Shown: in pieces, positions 2,245 through 63,827 of the stretch
How positions within the stretch are numbered: position 1 is the first letter of the stretch
How the letters are laid out: every line of letters starts with the position of its first letter
Assembly: GCA_951406725.2 (NCBI GenBank)
Contig: OX597835.1
Location: forward strand, 4,960,001-5,024,000
Direction of reading: 5' to 3'
Length of the DNA: 64,000 bases
DNA from: Octopus vulgaris
Taxonomy: Eukaryota
The notes under the pieces: model-generated
The model's input: the letters and a program-made list of their open reading frames with translations, nothing else
The model's database searches: none
Told to the model about the DNA's origin: nothing
Program-made: the position numbers and the translations under genes

Positions 2245-2474
2245 ATCCACCAAGTCTGATGTTTGCTTCACCAACTGTGAATGTTTCGAGGAAAGACCAC
2301 AAGATTCAATGCCATTTGCCAAATCTTTCCAAAAATGTAACCAATGCAACGTACTATGTTAGATGGATGCTAAATGAAGATATTGTTGACCAAACGACTT
2401 TGATTGCAAACGGAAGTCAGAAAGTCGTTACTCTTGATGATAAACTTACATCAAACATGTTATATGGAACTCAG
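2245..2474 (+). CDS. Exon 1 (module 1, exon a; Ig-like)
   Basis: gaag|ATCCA...TCAG|gtaaat; phase 1-0; DPPSLMFASPTVNVSRKDHKIQCHLP...YYVRWMLN...LYGTQ. Confidence 0.85.
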
Positions 2475-35121: not shown

Positions 35122-35202
<81 letters not shown>

Positions 35203-37451: not shown

Positions 37452-37482
<31 letters not shown>

Positions 37483-39325
37483 TTGTGTGTCTGTGTTTGT
37501 CCCCCTAGCATTGCTTGACAACCGATGCTGGTGTGTTTATGTCCCCGTTACTTAGCGGTTCAGCAAAAAGAGACCGATAGAATAAGTACTGGGCTTGCAA
37601 AAAAAAGAATAAGTCCCGGGGTCGAGTTGCTCGATTAAAAGGCGGTGCTCCAGCATGGCCGCAGTCAAATGACTGAAACAAGTAAAAGAGTAAAAGAGTC
37701 TGGTGTCGAAAGTATCGTAGCAACAACATTGTTCTCATTCAAGGGGACTTAATGTTTTCACATCTGATTCGTCATGATTGTGATTGGAGGTTATCAATGA
37801 CACCCATAGCTGTTGCCAATAAGGGGCCCCCTAGCTATTTTTATTTGTTCTCTTGATCCATCCACATCTAAGAAAGCCTTAGTAATCAAACCAACATGGT
37901 TGCCTCTTTGCAGCCATTCAACCTGCTGGAAAGAACAGTTCACTCTGCCTCAGATTACACCAGCTCACATACTTTGAAAAGGAAATTAAGTAACGTTGTC
38001 CCAGATTCTCTGTTCGTAAGAGAAAAGATAGGATAATTATGGTTGGCATACTTTTGAAGACAAGTCTGCTGGATTAAGACCGGCCTTGGTTAAAAAAGGG
38101 AATGGTTGGAATGTCTTTGACTGTAGATTTGCTTTATCAAAGCTGATTTGGATTTAAACAGCTTCAACAACAACCCTTCAGAAACAAAAGAATGAGTGAA
38201 CATCTTTGCAGTTGTTCAGCTGAAGAGAAATAGCAGTTAAATCATCCTCAAATCAAACCCAACCATATTAAAAGGTAGTAGATAATATGGTCTTAAACAC
38301 ACTATCTCTAAGAACAAATGACCATAGCTTGGGTATACTATGGATTATAGATTCACTCAATCAGGTATGATCATGGGGCCAAACAACAACAGTATTTACA
38401 TTGGTTTTCTTTCCCTTTTCAGACAACAGTCGTTGACAGAGATAGAACAGCTTTGTGTAATTCTCTTAATGATCCACACATGACCACATTTGATGGACGG
38501 TAAGAGTTTAATCTTTACTCAGAATAAATAAATTTCAATGTTATGAGAACAAATCAATATGAAATCAATATGCTGGGCTTCACGCATGCAATGACTAATG
38601 ATTGAGGCCTGATTGAGGCTTTTGGCAATATGCTGCACTTGAGATGATGAGAGTATCATGTAATTAACCCCTGTGCTAGTGGTACAGAAAAAGCACCTTT
38701 TGGGCATTGGGCCTCATAGAGGCAATGACATGTGACCAAGACCTTTGGCAGTATTCTGTGCTTGAACAGAAAACCCATCAAGCAAAGTGAAATCTTAATT
38801 GTGGCAGATACCAGTGTCATGCAACTAACACTCATGCCAGTGGAACATAAAAGCTCCCATTGCACTCTCAGAAGGGTTAGCATTAGGAGGGCATCCAGCC
38901 ATAGGAACCATGCCAAATCAGACTGGAATCTGGTGCAGCCCCTCAGCTTACCAGCCCTGGTCAAACCTTCCCACCCATGTCAGCATGGACAACAGATGTT
39001 AAACGATGCTGATGATGATACAATATGTGCAGTTATTCCTTGCATCTTTATAAGCTGCTCAAGTTTGAGTCACAGAGTTTGTCATCAAGTACTTAGTGTT
39101 TATGCCAAAATACTCTTTTACTCTTTTACTTGTTTCAGTCATTTGACTGCAGCCATGCTGGAGCTCCGCCTTTAGTCGAGCAAATCAACCCCGGGATTTA
39201 TTCTTTGTAAGCCTAGTACTTATTCTATCGGTCTCTTGCCGAACTGCTAAGTTACAGGGATGTAAACATGCCAGCATCGGTTGTCAAGCGATGTTATGGG
39301 GACAAACACAGACACATAAACACAC

Positions 39326-39395
<70 letters not shown>

Positions 39396-42300
39396 GAGGG
39401 GCTTCTTTCAGTTTCCGTTTACCAAATCCACTGACAAGGCTTTGGTCGGCCCGAGGTTATAGTAGAAGACACTTGCCCCAGGTGCCACGCAGTGGGACTG
39501 AACCCGGAACCATGTGGTTCGTAAGCAAGCTATTTACCACACAGCCACTCCTGTGTCTATGTTCCATTATTTCTCAAATCATTTAAACAATTTTAGGATT
39601 CTTGAACAGGAATAGTGACCAGAATGTCTGAAACAAGTGAGAGTTGTAATGATCAGTTTCCTCAGCTCTCTGAGAAAAACACTGCAAGGTTGAACATGGC
39701 TACTTTTGAACCCTGGGAGTGTGTCTGCAAAATTCACAGTGGAGAGAGTTGAAGTTCCTTTCTAAGTTGAGACCCATCACATATATTGATTTCAAATTTT
39801 GGCACAAGGCTAGCAATTTCGAGGAGTGGGTAAGTTGATTACATCAACCCCAGTACTCAACTGGTACTTATTTTATTGACCCCGGAAGGATGAGAGGTCA
39901 TGTCAATCCTGGTAGAATTTGAACTCAGAATGTAAAGACAGGCAAACACTGCTAAGCATTTTGCCCGTCATGCTAATTCTCACAATAAACTTTAAATTGT
40001 AGTTTGGGATGATCATTTTGTCAATAAAACACAAGCACTTGTTGCAATTCATTAGTTATTAATCATTGTTGTTTTTTTCAATTAATTAATTAACAAACCA
40101 GCATATATGTTTTTCTTGGCATAACTCTGCCAAAATACATCAATATTCATTTTAACTCTTGTCTCATATCAACAATCTTATGAAACAAATGCAAAACCAA
40201 AACTGCCATCATTTAAAACCCATGTTTATTTATTTTCTTAGGAACTATGACAATTTCTATGAAGGTGAATTTGTTTTATACCGGCACAAAACATTACCAT
40301 ACGAAGTAAGTGTGTTGAATATATTAGTTATTGATAGTAATGTACTGTTCATGCACATTTGGCACCTTTTTTCTTATGAGGTGTACTGCACCTGAGCATT
40401 GTGTTTCGTGCAAGCCAAATAGCAAATTGGGGCCCCACAGTAATGTGTCAAAATTCCAAGAAAAAATTTTGCTTCGGCTGTAGTTATTGCAAACAGCTAA
40501 ATTTCTTTCTCTAGCATTGTATATAGTTCAATCTATGCAAGTTTATATACGAAAAGCAAAATAGGAATTTTGGAAGTATCTGTGAAATTAGTTTTTAAAC
40601 ATTGAATGGCTAATGGTGATCCACCAGAATGAAATATAAATCAAAGGGGTCCATATATGAAAAAAAAAAAAAAACAGTTGAGAACCACTGGTTAAAACCT
40701 TTTCTAATAATGGTTTCAAATTTTGGTACAAGGCCAGCAATTTCAGGGGATGGGGTAAATTGAATGCATTGAACCCATGCTCAGCTGGTACTTATATTAT
40801 TGATCCCAAAGGGATGAAAGATAAAGCTGACCTCAGTGAAATTTGAACTCAGAATGTAAAGACAAACATCATGCTGATGAGCCTTTTGTCTTGTGTGCTA
40901 ACAATTCTGAAAGCCCACTGCCTTAACCTTTTTCAATATCAGATCATCATTTAATGAAGTTTCCTTCTGTTTCTTTATTGCATATATTATCTATAGTCAT
41001 TCATGTCCCTGTCATATCGTTATTTAATTTCTTATTAAATTATTAACATTCATTATATATTTTCTTTTGACTAGGTTCATACATTTTATCGGAAATGCAA
41101 CAACCGTGCCAGCTGTAATTGCGGAGTCGCCATACAGTCAGGTCTTAGTGTTATTGTCGTTGATAAATGTAGCACTACAAAACAGAAGAAAGTACCACTG
41201 ACCGTTAAAATATATCAGAGTACTAAACTTGATCCACGTACCAAAATTATACAGTCAGTTAATGGTCAACAGTATGAGGTATGTAAAACATATATATATA
41301 TTTACAAGCAAATCGCCCCTCGTCCAATGGAGGATGGTGAGTTGTCAAACATTTAAACCAAATTTTCTCAAAACAACTTGTCCAACCGTCCCATAGGCCT
41401 CCCCTTTAAGAAACACTGATTTAACCTAAATTTGAGACACCAGTAAAAGAAGAAATAAAGATAGACTTTTTTATATTCCAAAGAAAAACGATTTTATTCA
41501 CACAATGCGTAGTATCGATTTCAATAGCTGATGTACTTGTGTGTACAAATGCATGTTCCCACGGCTTTATGGATCGCATTTTCACCTGGAATCGATTTTT
41601 CTAACTTTTTCAAGACTTATACACCCCCTGATACTGTCGGTATCTACATATCAAATTTGAGTGCAATTGGATGGAGGATGCCCGAAATCCTAGAAGACAC
41701 ACACACATACAGACAGAACGGATTTTATATAATAGATAGTCTATAGATGGGAGACGGATATTCTCTCTATAGAATACGCTATAAAATAGTGCTCAAGAGA
41801 TTTAAACTTGAGCAGGTAGAGGAGTAAATGTAAGGAAAAGCAAGTTTGTTAGGCAAGTTGATATACAAAAAATATTAAATAAATCTGATACAAAAAAATG
41901 TACATATGTTTGCATAAAAAAGGTCCGACTTGCACAGAATAGAAATGATATCAGGAATTAAAGGAGTTTCTGTGGGCTTGGTAGTCCAAAATAATCCTTT
42001 CTACTAAAGGCACAAGGCCTGAAATTTTGATAACAACAGATGACAGTGGACCCTAAAAAAATGGAGAAACTCTTAAAATACAACAATCTGGAAATAGAGG
42101 TAATATTGGGTGTTTCGTTCAACATCTTTAAACAAGCCTTATTCAGAGACATTTTGAGCAGGATGAGTTACTTGACCTGAAGAAAATTCTAACTGGGCCC
42201 CACCTGCAAGGTCATGTGCTGTTTATCTTGATATGAGATCACCATGTCGCGCACATATGGTTGTGATGCATGTGCCTGGTGTACCTTTATCAGACGGGTA

Positions 42301-43542
42301 GTCATGATGGGTATACTGGGCTTCGTATATTTTACCCCAGTGTCACTTTGATGGCATGAACTGCTCTCTCACTCAATAATAATAATACAATGTTGTTAAA
42401 CTTTTGCTGCCTTCATGTGATTTGACTGTATATTTTATTCTGCAGTTTCGCTTACCAATTGGTACAACAGTTTACGTGAAGGTGGGACGAGGTGGACAAA
42501 AGTCCTACATCAATGTTTGGATGAAGGCATCAACAAATGATTTTAACCAAACTGAGGGTCAGTAAATAATCTTCTTTGTATGTATTGCTGTGCATGGGTG
42601 ATTGCGTGTGTTACTGTATGTATGTGTATGTGTCAATAAAAATTGGTGTACATATCTATGTCTCATTATGTATGTGTGTCTCATTTTGTGTATAAATGTA
42701 CATTATTGTGTATACATATGAATGTGTTTCTTACTGTGTTTACATGCCTGAGTGTACGTGTATGAATTCTTCATCTAATATTTTGGAAAAGGGGAAGAAT
42801 TATGGAGAACAAATGGAAAACTTACGGCTATCATATCCTGGCTGTAGATTTTTCATTTGTTTCTATAATCACAGGAGTATAGGGCTACATAACAACAGGT
42901 TTTCATAGAAACCTAGAAATGCTAGGGTTCTGCAAAAAAAAAAAAAAAAACGAGAGAAAAGAACAGACTGGTTTGCATTCTCCAGAGCTGATTGGTCTGA
43001 GTGAAATTTGTGAAACATTCTAGAGATTTTCTATTTGCGGTTTCCGGGCTGAACCAAAGGCACAAAGTAAAATATACATATACAGGAGTGGCTGTATGGT
43101 AAGAAGTTTGCTTCTTAACTACATGGTTCTGGGTTCAGTCCCACCATATGACAGACAGGCGAGTGTCTTCTACTATAATTATGCACCAACCAAAGCCTTG
43201 TGAGAGAATTGGGTAGACAAAAACTGAAAGAAACCCATTGTATGTGTGTGTATATATATATACACACATACATATATATTACTGGTTAAGGCCTGTTTAT
43301 AGGGTTACCCAGGGTTTCTCCCCATAAAGAGTACTTTTATGGCATATCATCAGATCTTAAGACTTGTTACCCTGTATATTATTTGTATTGTTATATGAGT
43401 GAACGCCTCGCATCCTCTTCCAAGAAAGTTTTATTGCTATCTCTCTCTATATATATATATATATATATTAATAGTTATTGCCAAGCTAACATGGCAGTCC
43501 AGAAAAATAGGACGGATGCTGCCATTGATCATATATATATAT

Positions 43543-43608
<66 letters not shown>

Positions 43609-46600
43609 CGTGTGTGTGTGTGTGTGCATGCGTGTATAAATATATATGTTTGTGTGTGTATATATATATGTATATATATATATAAGGCAAATAAGAAAAT
43701 GGAGAGGATAACCAATCAACAAACATCAGCCTGAAAACATTCATTTGGATCTTTTTATTAAGTAATTACAATCCTATGTATAAGTAATCAAAATAAATAA
43801 GCAAATAAGCAAGTAACTACATGAATAAACAATTAAAAATAAATGAATAAGAATAATGCTGGTGTGTTTATGTCCCCGTTACTTAGCGGTTCGGCAAAAG
43901 AGACCGATAGAATAAGTACTGGGCTTACAAAACAATAAGTCCCGGGGTCGAGTTGCTCAATTAAAGGCTGTGCTCCAGCATGGCCGCAGTCAAATGACTG
44001 AAACAAGTAAAAGAGTAAATGAGTGAAAGAATAGTGAACCCTTCCAGCTGTTTCTACTTTTGGGGTGTCTAACTTGCCAAGATTTTTTTTTATGATACCA
44101 GTAATGTACAAGGATTGTACAAAGGTTGAACAAACGTTGGGCAGGGGCTTGGACAATAACTGAGCCCCAAAGCTTCATCAGAGAGACCATAACGTTAGGA
44201 ATCTAACATGTGAGAATGTAAGATGGAAGCACTCCGTCGGTTACGACGACGAGGGTTCCGGTTGATCCGAATCAACAGAACAGCCTGCTCGTGAAATTAA
44301 CGTGTAAGTGGCTGAGCACTCCACAGACACGTGTACCCTTAACGTAGTTCTCGGGGATATTCAGCGTGACACGGAAAGTGACAAGGCCGGCCCTTTGAAA
44401 TACAGGTACAACAGAAACAGGAAGTAAGAGTGAGAGAAAGTTGTGGTGAAAGAGTACAGCAGGGATCACCACCATCCCCTGCCAGAGCCTCGTGGAGCTT
44501 TAGGTGTTTTCGCTCAATAAACACTCACAACGCCCGGTCTGGGAATCGAAACCGCGAGTCCGCTGCCCTAACCACTGGGCCATTGCGCCTCCGCTATGTT
44601 TGATGTAAGATAAAATAGTAAGGAATGGAAATAAGGATGTAACTCTCATAATCTATGGAAATTGTTTCTGGAAGTGACTTTCTTCTCCATAAGATGTAAT
44701 CCCATAACTTATGGATATTACTTTGGAATTGCCTTTTCTGAATTGATTAATGGAGACATTACATCAGTGGTTTTCAACCAGGGTTCCACGGAACCTTAGG
44801 GTTCCGCCAGTACAGTCCATGGGTTCTGCAAGAAGTTACAAAACTGCTAAAATCGGCAGTAATTTTTAATTCTCCTGTGCAGATATGTGTGCATAAGAAT
44901 ATTAAATTATTGCACAGGGGTTCCTCGAGCCAGTGGAATGCTTCCTTGGGGTTCCGCTCCAGCAAAAACTTTGAAAAGCACTGTATTACATCATTAGAAA
45001 AAAAAACTGTTTTCATCAGGTAAATAAATGAACCACAACATTTAGAAGCATTCAAAAATCAACACCTTATGCACCTTCATGATTCTATGAGTCATGCTGA
45101 TCATATACATAACCTGATTATCTTTCTGTCTGTACTTCAGTACCCACCTATGTATTCATCTACCTTTATTGTGTATGTATTTTAATTTTGACCTGACACG
45201 GTGCCTTACCATTTAAGTAATCACTCGAATCCTAATTTTTCATATATATATATATATATATATATAGTTTCGCCATGGGCTCTTAGGAGCATAGTTCGAT
45301 TTGTTTTTGCTCCGCCTCTGTTCTGTTTTTGTTTTTCCAACGGATTTCCTATTTTCTTCCTGAAGAGAAAGACACAATATGGTCCCATTATTCCATCGGA
45401 TTTTGGTAATTTGTGCCTTTCGAAACACGTGTAGAATGAAATAAAACGATTTCTGTTCAATCTGCGTTCAGCTCCATTTCTTCAATTCACCAATAATGTT
45501 CTAATTTCAATTATCCGCACCAACGCACGGTTGCAACACCATATGGTTGTACCTCCAACCGTGCTGTTTTACTGCTGTGATTTTTGCTACTAAGGTATCG
45601 GTTAAACTTTTGATTAATCTACTACAAGATTATTCATCTTTCTATTTCACATAATATATATATATATATATGTGTTTTTTTTTTTATTTTTTTTTTTTCT
45701 AGGACTGTGTGGAACGTTTGATGGAGATGTCCGAAATGATCTTTATTCACCAAATGGAACTTTATTTGATATAAAGGGTAGAAGACCAGATGCATTTTCT
45801 CTCAGCTGGCGGTAGGTAGTACTTATCCTCCTCATCCTCAAGCAGTGTCTGCTCTCCATACTAGCATGGGAAGGGTGGTTTGACCAGACCCAATGGAGGA
45901 CGATGTTATAACCCATTCCTGGTGCCATGTAAATGCATCCATGCTGGTGCTGCATAAAAGTACCCAGTACAATCTGTAAAGTGGTTGGTATTAGGAAGGA
46001 CATCCAGCCATAAAAACCATGCCAAAGCCGACATGGAACCAAGGCAGCTTTTCAACTAGCCAGTTCCCGTCAAATTGTCCAATCCATGCCTGCATGGAAA
46101 ACATGTTAAATGATGATGATGATGACAATGATTATCATCATCATCGTTTAACATCCGTTTTCTATGCTAGCATGGGTTGGACAGTTCAACTGGGGTCTGG
46201 GAAGCCAGGAGGCTGCACCAGGCCCAGTCTGATCTGGCAGTGTTTCTGCAGCTGGATGCCTTTCCTAACACCAACCACTCCAAGAGTGTAGTGGGTGCTT
46301 TTTATGTGCCACTTGCACAGGTACCAGATGAGGCTGGCAAACGGCCATGATTGGATGGTGCTTTTTACGTGCCACCAGCATGGCGGCCATACATACACAC
46401 TCACACACATACACAAACAGACATATATAAACACACACTTATATATAGTTAATGTAATCCCTGATATTAAAAAATTTCAAAAGCTGATGTCCATATCTGA
46501 AACAGCTTCAATCATAGATCTTTTGGTTAAGGTTGCTCTTATATTAAACAACAACAAGTGGAACTGTGATGCTCACAAATTAAATAGTTTGCAAGCATGG

Positions 46601-47667
46601 CTGTTTTTGTTAAGAAGTTTGTTTCTCAGTTATGCGATTTCAGGTTCAGCCCCACTTCATGATACTCTGGACAAATGCCTTCTATTACAGTTCCAGGTTA
46701 ACTGAAATCCTGCAAATGGATTTAGGAGACATGACCTGAAAGAAGCCCATCATATACATTCATATATGTCTATGTATGTGTAGATTGCTTGCCACTACAC
46801 ATTCTTATTTTCTCTCATTGTTTTTTGCTGTGTTCCTTTCTGTGGAAGAGCGTAGGCTCAAAATGTTAAAGACTTTGTCACTGCCCGAGCATTATACTAA
46901 TACATCTGTTTGTTGTCTACACCACCTGTCTTTTTCTTTTGATTTTTTGTGAATTCTCCGCCCTATATATATATATATATATATACATATATATATCCTG
47001 TAAAAAGCACCCACTACACTCTCGGAGTGGTTGGCGTTAGGAAGGGCATCCAGCCATAGAAACTCTGCCAGATCAAGATTGGAGCCTAGTGCAGCCCTCA
47101 GTCAAAATCGTCCAACCCATGCTAGCATGGAAAGCAGGCGTTAAACGATGATGATGATTATCCTTGTGCTTGTAAAAGCTCCTATGCTACTTGTTGTTGG
47201 CTACCACTTATTAATCCCATCTTTCCAAGTTGGGGTTGTTATCCAATGTGCCCATACAACATATGATAAGTGTATTAATAACAAGAAATTTTCATATTTC
47301 ACTAATGCATTGCTATGCATTTCTATATGATGTGTATTTGTCTGCAACTATATTCTCACATCCGTAGCATACCAAACCAACATGTGTCATGCAGAAACAT
47401 ACATAGCAATGGCGTCGGTGGTGTAACGGTTAGCATGGTTGCCTTCCAAGCAGTCGATCCGGGTTCGACTCCCGGCCGACGCATCCTTTCTTTATAGGCG
47501 CAGGAGTGGCTGTGTGGTAAGTAGTTTGCTTACCAACCACATGGTTTCGGGTTCAGTCCCACTGCATGGCACCTTGGGCAAGTGTCTTCTACTATAGCCT
47601 CGGGCCGACCAAAGCCTTGTGAGTGGATTTGGTAGATGGAAACTGAAAGAAACCTGTCGTATATATG

Positions 47668-47698
<31 letters not shown>

Positions 47699-49338
47699 AT
47701 GTTTGTGTATCTGTGTTTGTCCCCCCCCCCCAACATCGCTTGTCAACCGATGCTGGTGTGTTTACGTCCCCGTAACTTAGCGGTTCGGCAAAAGAGACCG
47801 ATAGAGCAAGTACTAGGCTTACAAAGAATAAGTCCTGGGGTCGATTTGCTCGACTAAAGGTGTTGCTCCAGCATGGCCGCAGTCAAATGACTGAAATAAG
47901 CAAAAAAAAAAAGAGGAATTCATCAAATATAAAAATTCCCATTTCCCAAATTTCTCATTAATGCATATATTTATGTATGCATTAATCACCCACTACACTC
48001 TCGGAGTGGCTGGCGTTAGGAAGAGCATCCAGCTGTAGAAACTCTGCCAGATCAGACTGGAGCCTGGTGCAGCCATCTGGTTCACCAGTCCTCAGTCAAA
48101 TCGTCCAACCCATGCTAGCATGGAAAGCGGATATTAAGCGATGATGATAATGATGATGATATACTCCTAATATAAGGATAAAATTTTTAAAAAAAAATCT
48201 AATCAGTGGCCAGCATATTAAAATACCTTTTAAGGTGAAAATTATAAACAACCTTATTTATAATTATATATATATATATATATATATAGGTGCTGGATAT
48301 TTACTTCTATACTTCTCTAATTCTCTTGAGCTTCAATCAGTGATGTTGTCATTTCATCATCATCATCATCATCATCATCGTTTAACGTCCGCTTTCCATG
48401 CTAGCATGGGTTGGATGGTTCAACTGGGGTCTGGCAAGCCTGAAGGCTGCACCAGGCCAGTCAGATCTGGCAGTGTTTCTACAGCTGGATGCCCTTCCTA
48501 ATGCCAACCACTCCGAGAGTGTAGTGGGTGATTTTATGTGCCACCGACGCAGGTGCCAGACGAGGCTGGCAGACGGCCACGCTCGGATGGTGTTTTTTAT
48601 GTGCCACCGACGCAGGTGCCAGACGAGGCTGGCAGATGGCCACGCTCGGATGGTGTTTTTTATGTGCCACCGACGCAGGTGCCAGACGAGGCTGGCAGAC
48701 GGCCACGCTCGGATGGTGTTTTTTATGTGCCACCGACGCAGGTACCAGACGAGGCTGGCAGACGGCCACGCTCGGATGGTGTTTTTTATGTGCCACCGAC
48801 GCAGGTGCCAGACGAGGCTGGCAGACGGCCACGCTCGGATGGTGTTTTTTATGTGCCACCGACGCAGGTGCCAGACGAGGCTGGCAGACGGCCACGCTCG
48901 GATGGTGTTTTTTATGTGCCACCGACACAGGTGCCAGATGAGGCTGGCAGACGGCCACGCTCGGATGGTGTTTTTTATGTGCCACCGACACAGGTGCCAG
49001 ACGAGGCTGTAAATAAATCATCTCCTGCTTTTGTTCTTTCAAAAATAAATGACAGGAGATATCTCTTACTTGGGAAGCATTTAAATGTTAGTAACAGGAA
49101 GGGCAGGTGTCTACAGGAACAATGCCACTGTGATATGTTCATCTAACCCATGCTGGCAGGAAAAAAACAGACATAAATACAAATGAGTGAATGATTGAAT
49201 TGTATTATATTGACCACTGTGTTATCTTTTATTCACTACAATTACCACCACCACCACCACCACCACCACCACCACCACCACCACCACCACCTTTACCATA
49301 ACTACTACTACTACTACTACTGCTACTGCTGCTGCTGT

Positions 49339-49397
<59 letters not shown>

Positions 49398-49418
49398 ATG
49401 TTGCTGTTACTACTACTA

Positions 49419-49457
<39 letters not shown>

Positions 49458-49458
49458 T

Positions 49459-49512
<54 letters not shown>

Positions 49513-51085
49513 CACTACTACTACTAACATAGCCACAATAATAATGAAAACAACCATCATAACCACCACCACTACTGCAACTATAACAACGTTTTGTATT
49601 ACAGTGTTATGGAAAAGAACAGTATCTACCGTGGAATTTGTTCCGATGACCGAGCTATTGTGGAACCTATGGTTTTCTGTAAATGTGAGAGTGGCAAGCT
49701 CCCAGCAGTCTGTGACAATCATCTGGATGCCGTTTATTGTCCGGTAGCAGGAAGCACCAAGAAACTCTCAGATGGTATACATACACATATTTATTTACGC
49801 TTTTTTTAAAATTTTGTTTTTGTTATTAATATTTTCGGTCATTGGACTGTGACCATGCTGGGGCACTACCTGTAAAGGTATTAGTCAATCACTAGCAGTA
49901 TCGCCCGGCGTTGCTCGGGTTTGTAAGGGAAATAATTATATAAGCATTTTTAGAGAGTTACTTCCCTTATAGATGCCAATTCGGGCTTTTTTAGCCATTT
50001 CTGTTTTGGTGTCTTCAAGCCATGAAGTCGTTCTAAAAGAACGCTCGTCTCCTTGACAACGCTTTACGACGTTGATTTCCTTACACTCCCTTCCCCACAG
50101 CTTCACGAGGGAGGGAAGAAGGGGGAGAAGCAACACAGGTGCAGGTGCGACCGTGGACGCCAACTCCGCCGCCATCGACACACGAAAAATTATGCATTAA
50201 AATGGAATAAAAAATGATTTTAAATTATTTTTAAAATCGTAGACTCATCGTAGACGCGCGCTAATACTCAGAAGGGCTCGATATGAATCACGACTATAAG
50301 ATACCCGAATTTGGTTAAACTGCACCGCAAAATGTGGGAGTAGTTAGGAATCTAAATCGAAGGGGACAGACACTCACAGAACTACAGTTTTATATATATC
50401 GATATAAACTGTAGCTGAGTTAAGTGGGCTGGAGATAGTTTTAGTTTTTTGCATTTATATTCATTTAAAAGATATTACTGCAAATTAATCTTACTTGAAT
50501 TTATTTGAATTATTTACAGGTAAAGACATAACTGAACAGATAGTGGAAAAATTTAGTTTTCTGCCAGCCTGTAAATCTAATATCAAAGAGTCATTTGACT
50601 ATAATAAGACCTATACACCCAAGGTAAGTTCATAAGCAATCAGCATTTAACTATACTTTTATCAGCTATTTGATTCATCTGTAATTATCACCCATTCATT
50701 TTGAATAGTTGTTTACATCAAAATGGCATTTTGTCTCTTGTCTTCAATAACCCTTTCTACTGGGGATACATGGGCACCAAATTTAGTGGGAGGGGACGAG
50801 TCAATTACATCGACCCCAGTACACATGATCAGAGATGCACATATCGTCAGCCACTAAGGGATACAGTCAACTGGTTAAGGTCAAACAACTGACAAGCAAA
50901 TCTGTGGTATTGAGCAGAATATTTGCTGTAGCCCATCTTTTATAACCAAGACAAAACAATGTACATGATAACACTTCCAATCAGCTAAGATCAGAAGCCA
51001 TGAGAGCCACAATCTGGTACTGCGTCAGGGCATTGATGCTCCCCCACTACTCCTGCTCATGATTAAAGATGCACATATCGTCGTC

Positions 51086-51129
<44 letters not shown>

Positions 51130-51195
51130 CCCCGGTCGAACCGTCCAACCCATGCTAGCATGGAGAACGGACGTTAAACGATGATGATGATGATG

Positions 51196-51231
<36 letters not shown>

Positions 51232-54200
51232 ATTATTATCATCATCATTAAGAAGGTAGTGAGCTGGCAGAATCATCAATGTGCTGAGCAAAATGCTTAA
51301 AAGTATTTTGTCCATCTTTACATTCTGAGCTGAAATTCCACCAAGATTGAATTTGTCTTTCATGATTTTGGAGCAAATAAAGCTGAGTGCTGTGGTCAGT
51401 GTAATTGACTTTCCCCAACTCCCGAACTTGCTGGCCTTGTGCCAAAATTTGAAACCATTATTATCATTATTATTAGTACTATCATGTCACTGAAGTTTCG
51501 GGTTCTGGATTCCCTTTTACTTTTACTGGCTCATGAAATTTTTTAAATTTCAGGGAGCCCTCCCTAGCTGTAGTTAAATCTCATAGAGTAGAAAGAAATT
51601 CATATTTCTTTTGTTAGAATATAAAGAAGAGATTGCAAGTGGCAGGTGTCAATTATCTTCTGTTATCGAAGAATAAAAGTATGTAACTTGCTTTAGATAC
51701 TATAACTTACTCAAATACTTTCCAAACAGCAACCATATTAAGCTGTTGGATTTGTTATATCAGCTGTACCCAAATCCTTCATCTCAAAGAACCTGATAAT
51801 GTCATGGATACTGTCTCTTCCTCCTTGCACCTATTTTTTCTCAATACTAGTCTCTAGTTGTTTTCAACCATTATTTAATAAATTGTTGTATTATAATTGA
51901 TTGAAGGTGTACAAATGGGAAGCTGGAAGAAAATGGAATAAAGAAAAGGCATTCGACTTCTGTTCCCAGCAAATGATTAAAATCAGAAAGACATGTGATA
52001 ATCAACCTGGAGTGAATATAGCTGAGAGTATTGAAAATTGTGTTGAAGACATCAAAGTAAGTAAAAAGTAAAAAAATGTAAATATTCTTATTTTTCAGAT
52101 TTCAACAAATTTCTCACTCTTTTCTCATTATCCAAACTGTGTGTAACTCCTGCAGGACCTTACTAAAAATTATTCTCAGTTCTTTCTTTGCCAGATGTTG
52201 CTCCCCTAGAATTCCATCCCTGCAAATGTCTTTCCTGCAGTTGTTGATTTGCAACAGTTTACACAGAACATTAATAGCATCAATGTCTGATCTTAGAGGG
52301 TTTTCAGACACCAAAAACATTATTCCTTTCTCCCAGACCTAGCTAGTATGAAAACAAAAAAAAAATTATTCTACTACCTTATTTTCAACAGATGCTATTG
52401 TTCCAGCATCATTGTTTCCAAAACAAACTCTTGCCAAAATTCTTGCTTTTGAGAAATGCTTCCATTTCCCTTTAGCTATTCTTGTGTGTGTGTGCATACA
52501 TGCATGTGTGCGTGCATGTGTGTGTGTGTGATATTCTGTTATCCTGTTACAAATATCTGTCATCAAACTGTTACCATACTCAGACAATAAGATAACTCTT
52601 TTAACCTTAAAGAATCCCACTGCACAAAAAATAGGGGTGTCTTAAACATCACATTCACAAGAGAAGTATTAAATCCTGTGTTAAGTTGTTAGCTTGGATA
52701 ATAGTTGTTGCTTGCCTGAGTCCTACTTTGGAAACTACTGCTGCATCTTATATTTATTTATTTAATGAATTTAAGTGTCTATATAATATCAGAATACCAT
52801 GACAGACTAGAAAACGGTATCCAATACCATATAGTGTATAGTAATATAGTGTATTTTCTGACATACAAGTCAACTTAGTATATAGTGTAAACATCGTCAC
52901 TATCTTTCCAAATTCTGATGCATTTCATATGAAATTTTTGCTACTCTAAAGTTGTCTTGGCATGTATCTACCATTTCTTGCGGTAAATTTTGGTCTGAAA
53001 ATTTTGACCTGCATGCCAGAAAACATGGTAGAAAAAGAAGAGAAGTAAAAACAAGCAAGAAAATTGCAGCAAAGCTGCATGGTAGTGGTGTTAGATGTGG
53101 GATTCAGACCATCATATAACTTGTTTTATTTTTCTCTTCCCTTTTATTTTGACATGCACATTGCATTTTCATTCTTCTCTTCCATTTATGGATTCAATGT
53201 ACACATACACATTGCATGTTCATACTTCTCTTTCTAGTCCCTATTCAAAACCGTTTACAGATCACAACCATCTCATGAACTTACGTTCGTGAGAAGCTCT
53301 TCATGCTCCAATGGTTGTGTAAAAAACTGCTCAGTCATGTGATCTACTGACACATATGACTTATCAACTTGAATTAGAATTTATTGAACCCAAATACCAC
53401 CAGCTATTTGTGTCTGATGCTCTACCAGTTCTTCTGTCTACCACCCATTTTATAACTTATTTAGATCTTTTAGATGATTGTTTTGATTCTTTCACAGTAT
53501 TTTGCTGAAATTCCTTCCTCATCTTTGAAAAGTCCCCTTTATTTCTTGCAGATTACAGATGATTCTAGTTGGGTGCTTGATGCCTTGGACAATGTCATCA
53601 TGCAGTGCACACAGCATTATCTTCGAAATGTAACCCAATGGGAAACTGTAGATGGTAAAATGACTGTAAAAGAACTTACATTCTGTATCAACGAATGCAG
53701 TAACAAAGGGAGGTGTATTGCTGGTAAGTTATGTATAGTGCACACATACACACATACACATATACATGTATACCTTTTACTTGTTTCAGTTATCAGACCG
53801 TGGCCATGCTGGGGCACCACCTTGAAGAACTTTTAGTCAAATGAATTGTTCATTGTTGGTGTTACAAAGAGTTTTGTTAGTCCCTCGCTCAACTGTGCCC
53901 CGCACATGATAACCAAGACAGTTGCAGTCTGGGGAGTTAGGTGGTCTGATCGTAGGGGAGATGTGTAGAAACTGGGTAGGGTTGAGGAGTGTCCAATGAT
54001 ACATATCAGTTTTTTTTGGAGTAGAGGAATGTTGCAGAGAGGAGACTGTGCAGAAAAGTGGTGGGATGAGGAGTAACAGAGTAGTAATGATGGTACCATA
54101 TACAGGGGAAGGATGGAAAAAAGAGAGAGAAAGAGGGTTGGGGAGGTTGTAAAAAGTGTGATGAGATAATGTAATGAATGGTGGTGGGGTTGAGAGAATT

Positions 54201-54978
54201 TGTTAGCTCAGGAGTAGTGAATAGAGTACCTGTTTTGGCTGATTTTCATGAATATGATGAATCCTTATTAGAAATCATCTTTTCTCTCTTTTTGGATCCC
54301 CTCAAAAGTTTGAATTGTTCTTTTTGAACTTACCTTTTCTCCTACGGTTAGGGCAGCGGACTCGCGATCATAGGATCGCAGTTTTGATTCTCCCAGACTG
54401 GGTGTTGTAAGTGTTTATTGAGCAAAAACACCTAAAAGCTCCATGAGGCTCTGGCAGGGGGTGGTGGCGATCCCTGCTGTACTCTTTCCCTCCAACTTTC
54501 TCTCATTCTTTCTTCTGTTGGCCTGTTAGAAACGCATTCAGTTCGTTGCCAAGGTGTGAGGTAACTGGAAGCTTTTATAGAAGAACAGATACATCTGTGT
54601 AAATGATGGTAGCCTTTATGAGGACTGATAGGAATGAAATTATTTGGTCTGTCCCCACATTTTCTCCCAGAATATTTTCTGTTAATATGTAACCTAAAGC
54701 CTTTGTTGATGCCTATTATTTTTTTCTCTTCACTATAATTTTAAATTCTTTTTTAAAACCTTTTTTACCTATAATCCTATACTTCATTATATTATTACTA
54801 TGTTTGTGCATTCATATATTTATACGTCCATAAATATTTTAAATATTCATATATTTTTATATGTATTTTTAATATATCAATATATGTTTTTTGGACAATT
54901 TTTATATTAATTAAATCCATATACATACGTGCTTATTGTAGTTTACCTGATTTGAGCTTTCTCCATTCCATTTATTGT

Positions 54979-55016
<38 letters not shown>

Positions 55017-55824
55017 TATCAGTAATAATGAAGGGTAAGATTAATCAATTAATTAATAATTAATAATTTTACCAAGTAGTTCGGTATGCTAAAAGAACCA
55101 TTATCGGTAAAATTCTATAATTATGAGTATAATTATTATTAGGGTTCAGCAAAATTTGCTTCACCACATACCAAAATTTAGAAATAGCAGTTAAACTACT
55201 ATTTTACTACCATAAGAAAATCTTCCGGACAGCAATACTCAACAACCCAAGCAGGTAAAGGGAAAAAAAAAAAATGAATCTATGGTATGTGGTGAAGCAA
55301 ATTTTGCTGAACCCTAATTATGATTATACTCATAATTATAGAATTTATATATATATATATATATATATAGGAATACAAAATAGGAATACAAAATACACAA
55401 TGGCTGACTGTTAGTAAGGAGATACACACAAATAAGAAAGAAGAAAGCAAAGGACCACTGATGAGGTCACAGAAGTGTGACGAAAGAATCCTGGCCAAAA
55501 TAAGATTAAGATTAATATAAAAAATAAATAATGCTGAAGCAAAGTAACACCAAATATATAGTGCGTGTGTTTTTACTGGCTAAACTGGCAAAATGACCAT
55601 TCCTAAATACAACAATATATACATATATATAACGGGAAGCTTTATGAAAATAGACAAAAGACGAAGGCAGGTTTATGGAAATAAACAAAGATGAAGGCAG
55701 GTGGAATACAAACAAACAATTGTATTAGTATGGCGCTCAGGAAATGTAAATAAAAACAAGTCTTTAACGTTTCGAGCCTACGCTCTTCAACAGAAAGATA
55801 CACAGAGAAAAAACACAGAAAGAA

Positions 55825-55868
<44 letters not shown>

Positions 55869-56891
55869 TAACAAATCAAGAAGATATCACAGGGAACAGT
55901 TGTTTTAACATGATATATCTACACCAACTGATAAACCTAAGCCAGTTGTTAAGTATCCCACCATTGAGGGATTGATGCTAGATGGGGCAAAACAATGTGA
56001 TTAATAAGCATTCTCATATTCTATCTTTTGTTTCTTTCATTAATCAAAGATAGATAGATGGACAGACAGACAAGCAGACAGATTGGTATGCATGGTTTGT
56101 ATGTATATGTATATGCATATTCACACACACACTCATAAGTATACTTCTTCAATGTTCTAGGTATTTGCGACTGTGAGAAATCCTTCACTGGACCAGACTG
56201 TTCAATATCAACAACTGTGGCTCCCCAAATAGTGGACATCTCACCTCAACGTACAGATCTGGCAAAAATTTCATCGGTTAATATTTCCATTGTCATTACT
56301 GGAGGTCCATTTTATATGCTAAATCTCTACTTATGTCATTTCGTAAAAGCTGAAGTAAGTATTATATTCTTCAATTTGAAATATTGCAGTTATTAGAAAA
56401 TAGATCAGTGTTTATGATTGTGTGGATGTTTTATACTCATTCATATTCATAGAGATGATGGTTCAATTAGGTCTTGGAGACTGACATATACTGGCAATCA
56501 AGTTTTGCCAGTTAATTTACTCAACCACACTATTTAAACAAACTGATATGTGAAACTTGATTTTCCAGTCAAGTTGACTTCCCCAGTAAATTTGACTTTA
56601 CTCTCTGTATAGAATCCCTCCATCAAGAAACACTCACTTCTTTAAAGTGCTTTTAACTTATGGCCTCATTTGAACTCTTTTACTCTTTTACTTGTTTCAG
56701 TCATTTGACTGTGGCTATGCTGGAGTACCGCCTTTAGTCAAGCAAATTGACCCCAGGACTTATTCTTTGTAAGCCTAGTACTTATTCTATTGGTCTCTTT
56801 TGCCGAACCACTAAGTTACGGGGACGTAAACACACCAGCATTGGCTGTCAAGCAATGTTGGGGGGAGGGACAAACACAGACAGACAAACAC

Positions 56892-56971
<80 letters not shown>

Positions 56972-59806
56972 GACGGGCTTCTTTCAATTTCCGTCTACCA
57001 AATCCACTCACAAGGCTTTGGTTGGCCTAAGGCTATAGTAGAAGACACTTGCCCAAGGTGCCACACAGTGGGAATGAACCCAGAATCTTGTGGCTGGTAA
57101 GCAAGCTACTTACCACACAAGAAATCATTGCAAATTGCTAGCAACCAATATTAAGAACTTGTAAGGCTCTATCCTGACTCATATAGAATCATATAGACTC
57201 CTAGGGCTGGTTTGTTTCTTTCTTGATTTCATTTATATCCTTTACTATTGCGCACCAACAACACACACACAAACAAACCAACATGAGCTTGCACAATTAT
57301 CACACACGCCCCACACATACAACAACTTGCTTTGGTCAACCTAAGCATATAGCAGAAGACACATGTCAGAGATTCTGTACAGTGAAAACAAACTCAGAAC
57401 TTAGTACTTACAAGGTAAACTTGTTTACCACAAAACAATCATCTTTATTAAAGCAGTCTTAAAATTAATATGTTGTCAATTTCTTTGACCACCACCACTC
57501 ACTGAAGTGGATTCATATGCTTGTTTATTTCATTCTTTTGTTTCAGCTGCAATTCCCAGGAAAAAATTATACCAATGAACTTAACCAGCAAAAATTTACA
57601 ACATCTAATGCAATTTTCATCAGCTTTGAACAGGTTGAATGTATTTTACCAAAAGCAAATTCTTATTTGGTATTTCTTTCTACTGCATCCTTCAACGTTC
57701 AGTCACTTATTTGGTTTCATCAAGTATTCAGTTCTGACTGTTTCCAATGTCTCCCGGGGAAGATTTGTACTTTAATACAAGTAAGTAGTTTCTGAAGATG
57801 TTGATTGCTTGCTTTTAGTTGATCTGCCTTTCCTGCTTTCTTTATCCCTGTTTTTTAAGGTAGAAAGGTAGGATTTGACAGGATTTTAGCTGCTATTTTT
57901 AGCAATGTAGTAGTAACTACATAAAGACTTCTTCACTAGTTCAAGATATTCACTTTTTATGATTCCAAGTTCTGTGTGCAAATCCTACTAGTATCAGCCT
58001 GAGAAAGACAAAATTGGCCGCACATAACGGGACCTGAGTGACTGGAATCAAACACCACTAGGTATTTTTGTTGAAGGCACTGAATATAAGATCCCTTTCC
58101 TCCATATACACACATATATGCACACAGACCCTTACATATCCAAAGGAATAATCTTTCTACTTTAGGCACAAGGCCTGAAATTTTGAGAGAGGGAGGGAGG
58201 GAGGGAGGGAGCTAGTCGATTATATTGACCCCAGTGTTTCACTGGTATTTATTTCATCAACCCTGAAAGGATGAAAGGCAAAGTTGACTTTGGAGGGATT
58301 TGAACTCAGAACGTGATGATGAACAAAGTGTTGCTAAGTATTTCGCCCAGCATGCTAACAATCCTTATTTCTTTATTGCCCACAAGGGGCTAAACATAGA
58401 GGGGACAAACAAGGACAGAAAGATTATATTGACCCCAGTGCATAACTGGTACTTAATTTATTGACCCCCGAATGGATGAAAAGCAAAGTCAACCTTGGCG
58501 GAATTTGAACTCAGAACGTAACGGCAGACAAAACACTGCTAAGCATTTTGCCTGGTGTGCTAATGTTTCTGCCAGCTCGCTACCTTCATCATCATCATCA
58601 TCATCATAATGATGATGATAATGAGGGGGAGAATTTCTTTTATTCTCCACAGGGGCATAGATGAGGGGAACTTCACAAGAACATTCTACAATTTATGTGA
58701 GTTTTACATAAAAGATGAGAATAAAGGAAATCTAAGTGACAGAGAAATAAGACAAATGTACATCTCTCTCTATATAAACGGCAGTTTGTCTGTGTGTCTG
58801 TCAGGTTGTACCCTCACCCTGACCACGGCTTTCAACCGATTCTGATGAAACTTGACACACACATAGCCCAATGTCATAATTCAAAACTAACGCAGCGAAA
58901 ATTTTGAAAAGTTCCCCCAGTTCTGAAAAAGATCGATAAATCCGACATGGGGTCGAGAATCAGAAACACAAACCACAGACTGTCTAGGGGACGCAACTCG
59001 ACCTTTTTAACTAAAAAAAAAATTTACCATCATTTTTTTTTCCATTTTTTGGCTATAACTCTCTAAAAATGCTTTATAGTTATTTCCCTTACAAACCCGA
59101 GCAACGCCGGGCGATACTGCTAGTATAGTATATAAATCATGTGAACAAATGAATGATTCAGTCCTCCTGATATACGATTACCTCTATCTAGGGGCCGATC
59201 AAGAAGCCCCTCTAAAGTCACCTGAAATTACAACCTACCAGATTTAAAAAGAGTAAAGATGCACTGGGTAATGTTGTCCTGGCAACTATTTTTAGCAGGC
59301 CAAACCAATTACATGGTATTTTGTAATGGTGTAAAGATTCATTGTTTTTTTCATATTGAATTAAAAATATCATCTTGCAAATCATTTTTGTTTCCATGGA
59401 AATATATATTTTAAATAGGTGCAGGCATAGCTGTGTGGTAAGAAGCTTGCTTCCCAATCACAAAGTTCCAGGTTCAGTCTCACTGCGGGGTATCTTGGAC
59501 AAGTGTCTTCTACAATAACCTCAGGCCAACCAAAGCCTTTAAGTGGATTTGGTAGATGGAAACTGAGAGAAGCCCATTGTAAATATATGTATATATTTGT
59601 GAGTGTGCGTGTGCTTTTTTGTGTCTGTGTTTGTCCCCACCATCGCTTGATAATCAATGCTGGTGTGTTTATGTCCAGATAACCTAGCAGTTCAGCAAAA
59701 GGACTAATAGAATAAGTCCTTGGCTTTAGAAAAAAAAAAGTCGTGGAGTTGATTTATTCAAATAAAAAATCCATTAAGGTGGAAGGATGCTCCCTTTCTC
59801 TCTCAC

Positions 59807-59837
<31 letters not shown>

Positions 59838-60677
59838 GCCTACTTTGAAGGAAAAATCAGCCCTGTTCACTTTGAAATACTTGACTGCCAGATATTATCC
59901 AGCTTGCTACATGCATAATAGGCTAGTATCTTGGACGTAGAGAAGTCTTTCTTACTGTCAGAAGTCAAATGACTTAAACAAGTAAGAGAATAATAGAATA
60001 CAAAACTAGACTTTCCTGAGATTGATGACTTTCTCAATTCCATCTGTTTGTTTCATTTTTTTCCTAGGAGAAGTTCTGTTATATTGAGGGAGAATGCTAC
60101 ACTCTTGGTACTAAAAAGAAGGGAGACGAAAATCTTGTGTGTGATTCCAGCAAAAATATTATAATGTGGACAGATATCCGAAGTGAGCAATTCTGATTTA
60201 TTTAAAGGATTTTTTGGAACATTCCAAGTTTTCTTTACGGTTAATTTTTTATTGCTATATGTAAATGAGGTTGTTGTTTAGCCACAGGTCATCTCTGATT
60301 CAGCATACATGTGACCAAGGCCACTGCCACCTCCTCCTCTTCCTGAGAGAGATGTGTGTTATAACAATGTACAAACAATTTTTGTCCTCCGTTAGTCTTA
60401 ACAGATCCTCCGTTTCATGTTGTGTCTCTTTATAAGTTACATAAATTTTGTTGACTGGTCATTTCTTCTGTTAGGGTAATATCTAAAACGGTTGTTGCTC
60501 AGCATGATAGCAATGGTCAGCAAAGCATAAGCTATTCTGAGCAATGTTAGTGTAGATGAGTGCAATGTGTCCATAAATCTCATCTTTGAAATTTTGCCCA
60601 TGCCATGAGATGTTCTGCACCTTCATGAGAAGCTCTTTCCTTATTCTCAATATTCAGGCCCCATAAAGAAGAATGCT

Positions 60678-60741
<64 letters not shown>

Positions 60742-63400
60742 TGCTCTGAAGGAAGGATCTGCCTTGTTCACTTTGAAATACTTGACTGCCAGATATTTTC
60801 CAGCTTGTTGCATGCATAATAGGCTAGTCTCTTGGATGTAGAGAAGTCTTTCTTACTGTCAGCAATGTATCACCAAAGGGGTTCTCAAATTCATTGACTG
60901 CTGCAAGTTATGTGCCCTTGTTTCAGTTAATTGGCAAGTGGCTTCCATCTTCATTGATGGTCATGTCCCCTGTCTTCATTGCATTGAGAAATGGGCTGAC
61001 TTTGGCAGCAGAATTCTCAAGGAATATTAATAACTCTTGTTCATCATCGCACAGTTGATGTGCTGTAAGGGCAAGGTCAGAGAGTTGCAGGCTCTGGCGG
61101 TGTCTTGATTACTTTTGATCGATGTTGATACATTTGTCTTGGATGGGTTCAGGACTTTACTTAAGGATGTAATACACTTTAAGTGATTGGTACTTCTTTA
61201 TGCAGCTGTTCTCATCCATATGCATCACATGATGATACCAGTGCAGTCTCTTCTCATGTGCACTAGATCTGATCCTTCTTATGCTGAATTTCTTTTCTCA
61301 ATGCATTAGGGCATTGTCATACATGCACACTAACGTTGCATAATCAACAAAGTAGACTTACCTCATCTATTTATCTCATTCTAGATTTTCCACAGTTGAC
61401 AGCTGATGTGAAATTGGAAACATCTTTCAATGGCAGTGATGTAAAGAATCCTGAATTTTCATGGATTTGTAAATGGGGAGACTCATTAAACAATACTCAA
61501 AACCTTGAAGTTCATCTAAAATGGTTCGTTGATGGAAAAAATGTGTCATCAAATGAAATAACTAATAAAACTAGAATGTCTTCCACAGTTGGTCACAGAG
61601 AACTTCTGTCATACTTAAGTTATGGTTCATCTGTAAGTATTACTTTCATTTTTGCTAAGCAATGTTCATAGTTCACAGGTGCTCATGTTAGAAGAAGAGC
61701 CAAACAAGATTCTCTCAGTGAAAGATAATTATTTTGACAGCACAGTCACAACTGGCTGCCAAACTCAGTCCGGTTACTAGCTGGAGAGTTTAAGATAAGT
61801 AATCCACGAGTCATGTGTTGTGTTCGTTATTATGATGTCACTTAATTGACTCATGTTGCTTAACTCTAAACAGACATTATAAGTTTAATAATCCTTTCTA
61901 CTAAAGGCACAAGGCCTGGAATTTGGGGGAAGGGGACTAGTCGATTATATCGATTCCAGTGTTTCACTGGTACTTAATTTATTGACCCCAAATGGATGAA
62001 AGGCAAAGTTGACCTCGGTGAAATTTGAGCTCCGAACGTAGCAACAGACGAAATACCACTAAGCATTTCATCTGGCGTACTAATTATTCTGCCACCTCAC
62101 CATCTTAGGTAAAGTTTAATAATGCAAAAACTAAAAGCATTTCCTTAATTTGCAGTGATAGGCTCGAGTCCTCTTATGAGACTGATGAAGATAACAAGAA
62201 ATTACTTCAGTTCTCAAATTCAGGTTAGAGTATCCTGTTATATTTTGGCAAATATGTGCTAGTGGATCGCTAAGAGCACAATCCGAGTGTGATCATTGCC
62301 AGAGCAGCTAACTGGCTTCTGTGCTGGTGGCATGTAAAAAGCACCATTTGAGCGTGATTGTTACCAGCGTCGCCTTACTGGCACTTGTGCCGGTGGCATG
62401 TGAAAAAACATTCGAGCAAGGTCATTGCCAGTACCGCTGGACTGGCTCCTGTGCAGGTGGCATGTGAAAAACACCATTTGAGTGTGGCTATTGCTAGTAC
62501 TGCCTGACTGGGCCTTGTGCCGGTGGCATGTAAAAGCACCCACTACACTCTCGGAGTGGTTGGCATTAGGAAGGGCATCCAGCTGTAGAAACTCTGCCAG
62601 ATCAAGATTGTAGCCTGGTGCAGCCAGCTGGTTTGCCAGTCCTCAGTAAAATTGTCCAACCCATGATAGCAGGGAAAGCAGACATTAAATGATGATGATG
62701 ATGAGGATGTGTTCTTAAAGACTGTGACATGTCAAAGGGTCCAAATTAAATAGCAGCTGTAAAATGAAATATTTTGATGTATTCCAGTTCATCATTGGTT
62801 TTATTATTGAACTTAGAGGCTTAATATTTTCTCTGTTCCTTAATATATTCCTTAAAGCTATTTCATCCTTTACTTTTCAGAACTCAATGATTTCAGTATT
62901 TTTTCACACATAAATACTTAACTGATATTAAAAAACCTAAACTCAAACTGTCCTCAAACTTTTTACCTTCTAAAATCTTTCATCTATATCAGTTACATGA
63001 TATGGATGATTCCTGTTTTGAAGAAGGGAATAAAAGAAGCGGAGACTAACAAATGTGAACACCATCTTCATCATCATTGTTTAACGTCCACCTTCTATGC
63101 TGGCGTGGGTTGGACGATATGACAGGAGCACCAGGTGAGGTCAGTTTTGGTGTGGTTTTTACAGCTGGATGCCTCCCAAACATCAACCACTTAACAGTGT
63201 GGACTGGATGTTTTTTACAGGTACCAGCCCTGGTAGGATCACCAAGGATCACCTGGCAGGGTCACAAGACAAGGAATCTTTGAAAGGGGAGGGAGCACTG
63301 GAGGAAGAGATCTTGTGTCAGATGATGAAAGATTTGAGTGTGACAGAGACAGAGGAACAGAGACAGATGTCTTGTTGTAGAGGAGATACATGGTTACCCA

Positions 63401-63442
<42 letters not shown>

Positions 63443-63827: not shown

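Follow-up and report, generated by a model that had tools for sequence, protein, structure and literature searches.

Modules 3 and 4 and the start of module 5 of a 14-module array, which extends over ~390 kb of the Octopus vulgaris genome, lie within the window, the 64,000-nt stretch of DNA analyzed here (contig C22: 4,960,001-5,024,000). We propose that these modules belong to a single gene coding for a 13,300-aa single-pass membrane glycoprotein, likely a very long tether or scaffold that holds mucus or matrix at the epithelial surface, and give this reading as a whole a probability of roughly one half. That there is one giant membrane-anchored chain we hold to be very probable; granted such a chain, the tether or scaffold role, which draws on analogy with other giant surface proteins, is somewhat favored.

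The exon chain was rebuilt independently from splice-site and frame scans. All 32 window exons have AG/GT ends and together form a 1,676-codon frame with no stop:

2245-2474, 4434-4526, 6172-6537, 8572-8645, 10321-10384, 12029-12244, 12801-12906, 14582-14642 (+): module 3, exons 1-8
16228-16388, 18615-18700, 21573-21728, 23760-23913, 26809-26999, 28979-29197, 30701-30815 (+): module 3, exons 9-15
2245..30815 (+): module 3 as a whole; exons 13-15 found in an RNA-run contig
30816..31942 (+): intron between modules 3 and 4, 1,127 nt, phase 1, spliced out
31943-32166, 34280-34372, 35618-35992, 38423-38499, 40242-40305, 41075-41278, 42446-42557, 45703-45811 (+): module 4, exons 1-8 (window exons 16-23)
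49605-49774, 50520-50623, 51907-52056, 53552-53723, 56161-56354, 57547-57780, 60068-60182 (+): module 4, exons 9-15 (window exons 24-30)
31943..60182 (+): module 4 as a whole; an RNA-run contig contains exons 16, 18, 21 and 22, and its spacing accommodates 17, 19 and 20 at their exact lengths
35618..35992 (+): module 4, second beta-sandwich, whose acidic loop resembles that of Calx-beta; Calx-beta was not listed by the fold search
38423..38499 (+): first-strand exon of the module 4 VWD domain with N-D-P-H, a predicted Asp-Pro autocleavage site by reference to the GDPH literature
60183..61384 (+): intron between modules 4 and 5, 1,202 nt, phase 1, bridged by length arithmetic in run X2
61385-61632, 63735-63827 (+): first two exons of module 5; the gene runs on past the window

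The exon sums given in the initial annotation for two copies paralogous one for one (2,292 nt for exons 1-15 and 2,397 nt for exons 16-30) were reproduced together with their phases, as were the shared exon lengths of 93/93/93, 64/64 and 115/115 nt, and exons 31-32, which it took to start the next copy, are the first two exons of module 5. Its proposal of an old, divergent duplication is likewise borne out: modules 3 and 4 are 26% identical over 776 aa (E 7e-77), with a local score of 676, where 200 shuffles averaged 45 and never exceeded 72, and their identity by codon position (0.43/0.53/0.35) is that expected of old coding paralogues.

Run on individual window exons, Pfam returned only weak VWD and EGF matches, with exon 23 alone giving VWD at E 0.003, below the cut-off, and Ig_VWDE (PF25776) gave no match on these exons. 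The FANCL, Eapp, DUF6060 and NADH-G matches obtained on single exons also fell below the cut-off and were set aside. A word-index search with exon 18 found no match among 90 candidates, and a Pfam VWD search of the genome missed the present locus, probably because its VWD domain is split over small exons. In intron 23 (window 48532-49017) there is a tandem array with a unit of ~63 nt and long repetitive open frames on both strands.

To the window we added flanks of 400 kb downstream and 200 kb upstream. The VWD exon gave 14 genomic matches (17 candidates scored), every one of them on the + strand of C22 between 4.89 and 5.24 Mb, and iterative exon profiles recovered 14 modules in place of the two to three copies originally counted. 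These share a common 15-exon plan with two exceptions, namely module 7, in which exons 4 and 5 are fused, and module 6, whose exon 11 is broken in the present assembly. The resulting gene model has 225 exons and 39,825 nt and codes for 13,274 aa, or ~13,326 aa once exon 11 of module 6 is added; every internal splice site is AG/GT and the single stop is terminal. Outside the window its parts are as follows (C22 position minus 4,960,000, all on the + strand):

-123228..-123165 (+): candidate signal exon
-75473..-49440 (+): module 1
-46806..-46552, -44025..-43786 (+): PAN exons after module 1
-42746..-3573 (+): module 2
-2184..-1918, -274..-11 (+): PAN exons after module 2, just before the window
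83229 (+): end of module 5
84194 to 310797 (+): modules 6-14
111217, 130537, 157209, 176798, 202890, 231015, 246958, 268222 (+): starts of the LamG spacers after modules 6-13
312407-312524 (+): transmembrane exon
313790-313868 (+): last coding exon

The model thus runs from a candidate signal peptide through 14 VWDE-core modules with PAN and LamG-like spacers to one transmembrane helix and a short tail. Modules 1 and 2 are each followed by two PAN exons, modules 3-6 adjoin without a spacer, and a LamG-like spacer stands after each of modules 6-13, so that the chain of modules alone suggested by the window gives way to one in which spacers separate most modules outside it. After module 14, the transmembrane exon holds the sole 19-aa window with hydropathy >1.8 and is followed by a tail of ~27 aa; hence the product is predicted to be membrane-anchored and not just secreted. 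The full model has 603 Cys and 183 N-glycosylation sequons and a mass of 1.49 MDa before glycans. Its modules are pairwise 21-42% identical and conserve 38 Cys columns. The LamG assignment of the spacers rests on the Atlas and a weak oyster match (E 4e-4), and Pfam gave no match in 6/6 tested. Two of the spacers, after modules 10 and 13 (C22 5,162,890-5,165,088 and 5,228,222-5,229,531), have a phase-0 intron each at differing positions, and the remaining six are single exons.

The candidate signal-peptide exon lies 48 kb upstream, with an opposite-strand SKICH gene in between. The latter appears on the minus strand of C22 at 4,859,830-4,863,000, inside the putative first intron, as an unbroken frame of 1,057 codons with a SKICH domain at its N-terminus (E 5e-25). 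The earlier observation that neither a stop nor a signal peptide separates the copies extends to the entire array: the frame is open, and in the 13 introns immediately before modules 2-14 no credible signal-peptide exon was detected, the sole two matches looking like repeats.

That the modules are spliced into one reading frame, as the initial annotation proposed, was examined in contigs from runs guessed to be RNA, none of which is recorded as RNA; these are short-read contigs, not single 40-kb molecules. Placements were taken from the piece table, the joint table being swamped by repeats. First, a 17,187-nt contig of run X2 carries exons 13, 14, 15, 16, 18, 21 and 22 at their model positions and agrees with the model base for base as far as module 7. 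In it, the exon 15 piece ends at 8645 and the exon 16 piece begins at 8646, so that exon 15 runs straight into exon 16 and the junction 30815^31943 proposed for checking is bridged directly. Among the pieces listed only X2 bridges it; X1 and X4 extend 5 and 8 letters past this joint, too few to count. Second, an X2 contig of equal size and depth at the module 6/7 boundary has exon 15 of module 6 at 15,760, which equals the model position of 15,133 plus 471 (the offset set on exon 16) plus 156 (one exon 11, a length found in 7/13 other modules). This fit bridges the junctions of modules 4-5 and 5-6 by arithmetic; the other junction proposed for checking, 60182^61385, is accordingly bridged by exact X2 length and not by direct placement. 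Third, the splice from module 6 to its LamG spacer is GT-AG in 4/4 runs from two studies, and the spacer continues into module 7 in X2, X3 and X7. Two junctions are therefore joined directly and two by exact arithmetic. Further on, an X3 contig of 33,022 nt would by its length reach from exon 11 of module 2 to exon 1 of module 14; both it and an X2 contig of 20,834 nt extend 20,232 nt beyond exon 8 of module 7, a distance that corresponds to exon 1 of module 14. The junctions past module 7 are given by contig extent alone, and the path from module 14 through the transmembrane exon to the tail by the genomic exon model.

Several local features emerged alongside. At its 5' end the X2 contig has 471 nt not accounted for by the model, and between modules 4 and 6 it requires 156 nt beyond the model. 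At C22 ~5,060,724-5,061,070 a simple repeat and a ~326 bp tandem duplication truncate exon 11 of module 6, a discrepancy that is either an assembly error or a private structural variant; the frame would survive skipping of this exon. In module 7, intron 4 has been exactly lost (L061:6198-6335), and the fused 138-nt exon is confirmed by RNA-run contig joints.

These junctions bear on the view that tandem paralogues are clustered at the locus, or that a single gene gives mainly short products through internal promoters and intronic polyadenylation, with the long path as a minor read-through. Public annotations hold pieces of 1-6 modules, a one-module gene in Ostrea looks real and has a signal peptide of its own as well as C-type lectin domains, and one X8 contig begins inside intron 15. 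Against this, canonical in-frame splices connect the modules; between modules there are no stops or credible signal exons and the introns are mostly ~1 kb; the single transmembrane segment lies at the far end; and the annotated pieces start and stop mid-module. We consider a locus of mainly short products very unlikely. The X8 contig (depth 2.9) has 33 nt of intron 15 (window 31910-31942) ahead of spliced exons 16-18, which could be a retained intron or an internal start.

The domains of the module were recognized through homologues, on which Pfam detected Ig_VWDE, VWD, Vwde and EGF, in agreement with the initial identification of the repeat unit as a VWDE core. VWD scored E 1e-24 in P0065, the Octopus bimaculoides orthologue; Ig_VWDE reached E 3e-16 in Aplysia P0062 and only E 9e-4 in P0065; and the Vwde helical domain (PF26129) was precomputed on 9/10 matches, P0065 included. 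A PDB sequence search with an Aplysia protein returned only EGF-level matches to reelin and teneurin. For structure we used an AlphaFold model of an oyster one-module homologue (~35% identical, 24-row alignment) in place of the octopus protein. It is mostly confident over residues 295-1094 except for a linker at residues 728-772. Its VWD and helical domains match MUC2 D3 (Z 24.9, rmsd 3.6, 262 aligned), VWF D assemblies and FCGBP (Z 20.4); thus, the predicted fold of this core resembles that of a mucin D assembly. After the helical domain come an EGF and then a TIG-like sandwich (Z ~9), and TIL gave no Pfam match on the homologues. The other sandwiches produced generic Ig/FN3, PapD-like and TIG matches at Z ~9, which show a common fold only. 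The profile built on the second sandwich itself aligns in register with 32 repeats of a Calx-beta protein along ~40 columns (the highest score among 20 shuffles was -0.3 bits); Calx-beta had no Pfam match on the homologues and is absent from the 50 fold-search rows.

An x-D-P-H motif is present in 12/14 modules (NDPH in 10, GDPH in 1, TDPH in 1, absent in 2) and in 25/30 homologous modules. The VWD of module 3 is degenerate, with no Asp-Pro-His and a short exon 8 (window 8572-8645 and 14582-14642); its scallop and Elysia counterparts are likewise without the motif, whereas the Aplysia counterpart keeps it. As described in the sections consulted of two FCGBP studies, the GDPH site self-cleaves early in secretion, which stabilizes the domain while the fragments stay disulfide-linked (PMC10880436; PMC8267560); the Asp and the His were shown to be required for cleavage (PMC10880436). 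A Lys/Arg-rich linker follows VWD in 11/14 modules by an eye count. It is conceivable, if unlikely, that the protein is a membrane-bound polyprotein precursor from which Asp-Pro self-cleavage and proteolysis at the basic linkers shed soluble modules into mucus or adhesive secretions. The frequency of both motifs and the low confidence of the linker in the oyster model are in keeping with such processing, and the single disulfides holding FCGBP fragments have been proposed in one of those studies to permit controlled dissociation (PMC8267560); yet a strict R-x-x-R furin site at the linker occurs in module 14 only, and the FCGBP fragments remain linked after a cleavage that stabilizes the domain.

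We compared the predicted protein with known VWD systems. Each module resembles VWDE in having Ig_VWDE, VWD, the Vwde helical domain and EGF, and the nearest Atlas clusters are VWDE-like. However, the listed VWDE clusters reach only ~1,900 aa, several with a D8C_UMOD domain, and the VWDE plan is that of a secreted protein with a single core and a C-terminal array of EGF repeats, the latter being noted in the consulted part of PMC9117669, whose supplement also lists a separate scallop vwde. In the octopus protein the core instead recurs 14 times, with PAN and LamG spacers but without an EGF array, and the last module leads into a transmembrane exon and tail. D8C_UMOD had no match on 5 homologues, mostly without N-termini, and a D8C search of the octopus genome had no match anywhere, controls included. 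While built from the VWDE core, the octopus giant does not have the VWDE architecture and is not the VWDE orthologue.

With FCGBP, MUC2, MUC5AC, MUC5B and VWF it shares serial VWD assemblies, the predicted D-assembly fold and Asp-Pro-His near the VWD start; FCGBP has 13 VWD domains, 11 with GDPH, in the account of PMC10880436. Unlike these, its beads are ~800 aa with two extra sandwiches and appear to have EGF-TIG where mucins have TIL-E, its motif is mostly NDPH, and the chain has a predicted membrane anchor. S+T+P amount to 18-24% in each module with no PTS region, and it closes with a transmembrane helix and tail at the C-terminus, the place of the cystine knot in gel-forming mucins; it is therefore not one of the latter.

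Mesh and zonadhesin cross the membrane once and have, close to the cell surface, a VWD that can be cleaved, and MUC4, SUSD2 and Mesh carry NIDO, AMOP or sushi domains beside VWD. NIDO, AMOP, sushi and MAM had no Pfam match at E 0.001 on 5 homologues, and the octopus model is accounted for by its modules and the PAN and LamG spacers. MUC4 and SUSD2 are likewise single-pass with a cleavable VWD near the surface of the cell (PMC10880436, sections consulted), a plan predicted for the octopus protein too, but those proteins and Mesh have one or few beads against 14 in the octopus. Sponge aggregation factors, compared by description only from parts of PMC5400394 and PMC11670116, resemble it as adhesion proteins with Calx-beta repeats followed by VWD and with modular exons, and differ in having a wreath domain and being secreted. 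The architecture is probably a mollusc-shared, undescribed new combination of known domains.

Multi-module proteins were found in Octopus bimaculoides, Argonauta, Aplysia, Elysia, Bulinus, Bradybaena, Candidula, Pecten and Crassostrea; within the scope of these word-based searches, covering proteins of up to 5,000 aa, all named multi-module matches are molluscan. They appear to be annotation fragments, beginning or ending within a module or spacer, and keep the order of PAN-flanked, then abutting, then LamG-separated modules. A P0065 module is 90% identical to octopus module 5. Aplysia P0064 closes with four modules followed by a hydrophobic helix and tail. Two Aplysia models, from contigs of equal length, have 38 identical residues in common within a single LamG domain; jointly they would imply an array of ~11 modules if the missing start matches. 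Judging from these sequences, the array appears common to cephalopods, gastropods and bivalves and is not cephalopod-specific.

In a 44-module tree (a quick search with SH-aLRT support and no bootstrap), octopus modules 2, 3, 4, 5 and 14 group with gastropod or bivalve modules of the same position (SH-aLRT 98, 94, 94, 98 and 99), and octopus module 6 does not group with sixth-position gastropod modules. Left out were bacterial-type repeat proteins (P0006-P0009, P0017, P0025) and P0013, none of them modules, P0067 (no full module), P0068 (zonadhesin), P0060 (a near-copy of P0011), redundant oyster models and partial modules. Modules 8/11, 9/12 and 10/13 pair in this tree, and only 8/11 and 9/12 in another comparison, which points to a three-module block duplication of 8-10 to 11-13 (C22 5,092,176-5,229,531). 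Argonauta modules cluster with 9 and 10 and leave 12 and 13 outside; thus, the block duplication predates that split. The number of LamG-flanked modules differs by lineage, with ~11 modules inferred in Aplysia and 14 in octopus. Among the spacers, those after modules 9 and 12 are both 636 nt and form the closest pair (39%).

For the favored tether or scaffold, we envisage a chain of predicted type I topology that would enter the secretory pathway and become heavily disulfide-bonded and N-glycosylated. Each bead would comprise an Ig/FN3-like sandwich, a Calx-beta-like sandwich, VWD, the basic linker, a C8-like helical domain, EGF, TIG and a small Cys-rich cap. Up to 12 modules may self-cleave at Asp-Pro, their fragments staying disulfide-linked as in FCGBP. 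The PAN and predicted lectin-like LamG spacers might bind glycans or partner proteins. Projecting perhaps ~100-200 nm from the surface, a rough guess that was not computed, such a glycoprotein rod anchored in the epithelial membrane would hold mucus or matrix.

Usherin and ADGRV1 sit in hair-bundle ankle links, and Drosophila Dumpy, MUC16 and C. elegans DIG-1 are giant modular extracellular chains; most of these proteins are membrane-anchored. As presented in the part of PMC7642844 consulted, ADGRV1 is a 6,306-aa Calx-beta-rich link protein, and with usherin it resembles the octopus giant as a very large modular extracellular chain spanning distance; since the repeat units of such tethers and links differ, the likeness is one of analogy, with homology limited to generic Calx-beta-like, LamG and EGF domains. 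With ADGRV1 as precedent, the same giant membrane protein could instead be specialized for linking cells, microvilli or cilia to one another, or act as an adhesin in gamete recognition, and bind via its distal PAN-flanked modules. The conservation of module order across mollusc classes suggests position-specific partners, and Calx-beta-like and LamG-like domains with a short tail would suit such a link, while the lineage-dependent number of LamG-flanked modules and the absence of Calx-beta from the fold-search rows for the second sandwich speak against it. We regard this as a possible role, though clearly the less probable one.

Returning to the tether or scaffold, we lean towards seeing here an undescribed family of megadalton single-pass proteins, among the largest animal membrane proteins, whose position-specific modules have been kept since before the cephalopod/gastropod/bivalve split and whose ~40-kb mRNA has been cut up by annotation pipelines. 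It would act as a self-cleaving, length-tuned tether for a mucus coat or for microvillar or ciliary links, with a three-module block duplication in octopods. An apparently phylum-wide giant surface protein would then exist in databases only as unrelated-looking fragments named 'uncharacterized' or 'VWDE-like', and, given such fragmentation, matches of this kind in expression studies of molluscs may in part stem from a single gene. In the literature searched (including the accessible parts of PMC7390686, PMC9679248 and bioRxiv 10.64898/2026.05.15.723513, with subscription journals and bioRxiv supplements outside reach) no description of the array was found, and in the portions consulted of two oyster papers VWDE-named genes appear in expression lists only. 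The array is not a cephalopod novelty, as gastropods and bivalves appear to have it in common with the octopus. The VWDE core, which has no solved relative by sequence search and a predicted mucin-D-like fold, can act as an 800-aa repeat unit. The array offers a clear example of duplication at the level of whole modules, its ordered spacers being conserved across mollusc classes, and its product a concrete candidate for anchoring mucus or linking surface projections in mollusc epithelia.

Two further VWD assemblies were noted. P0067 (4,064 aa) has a long unrelated N-terminus, one VWD-to-EGF/TIG core and a similar transmembrane end. At C3:25.2-25.6 Mb there is a dense cluster of other VWD exons on the + strand, with at least 9 copies at ~6-14 kb spacing, which is possibly another tandem VWD giant.
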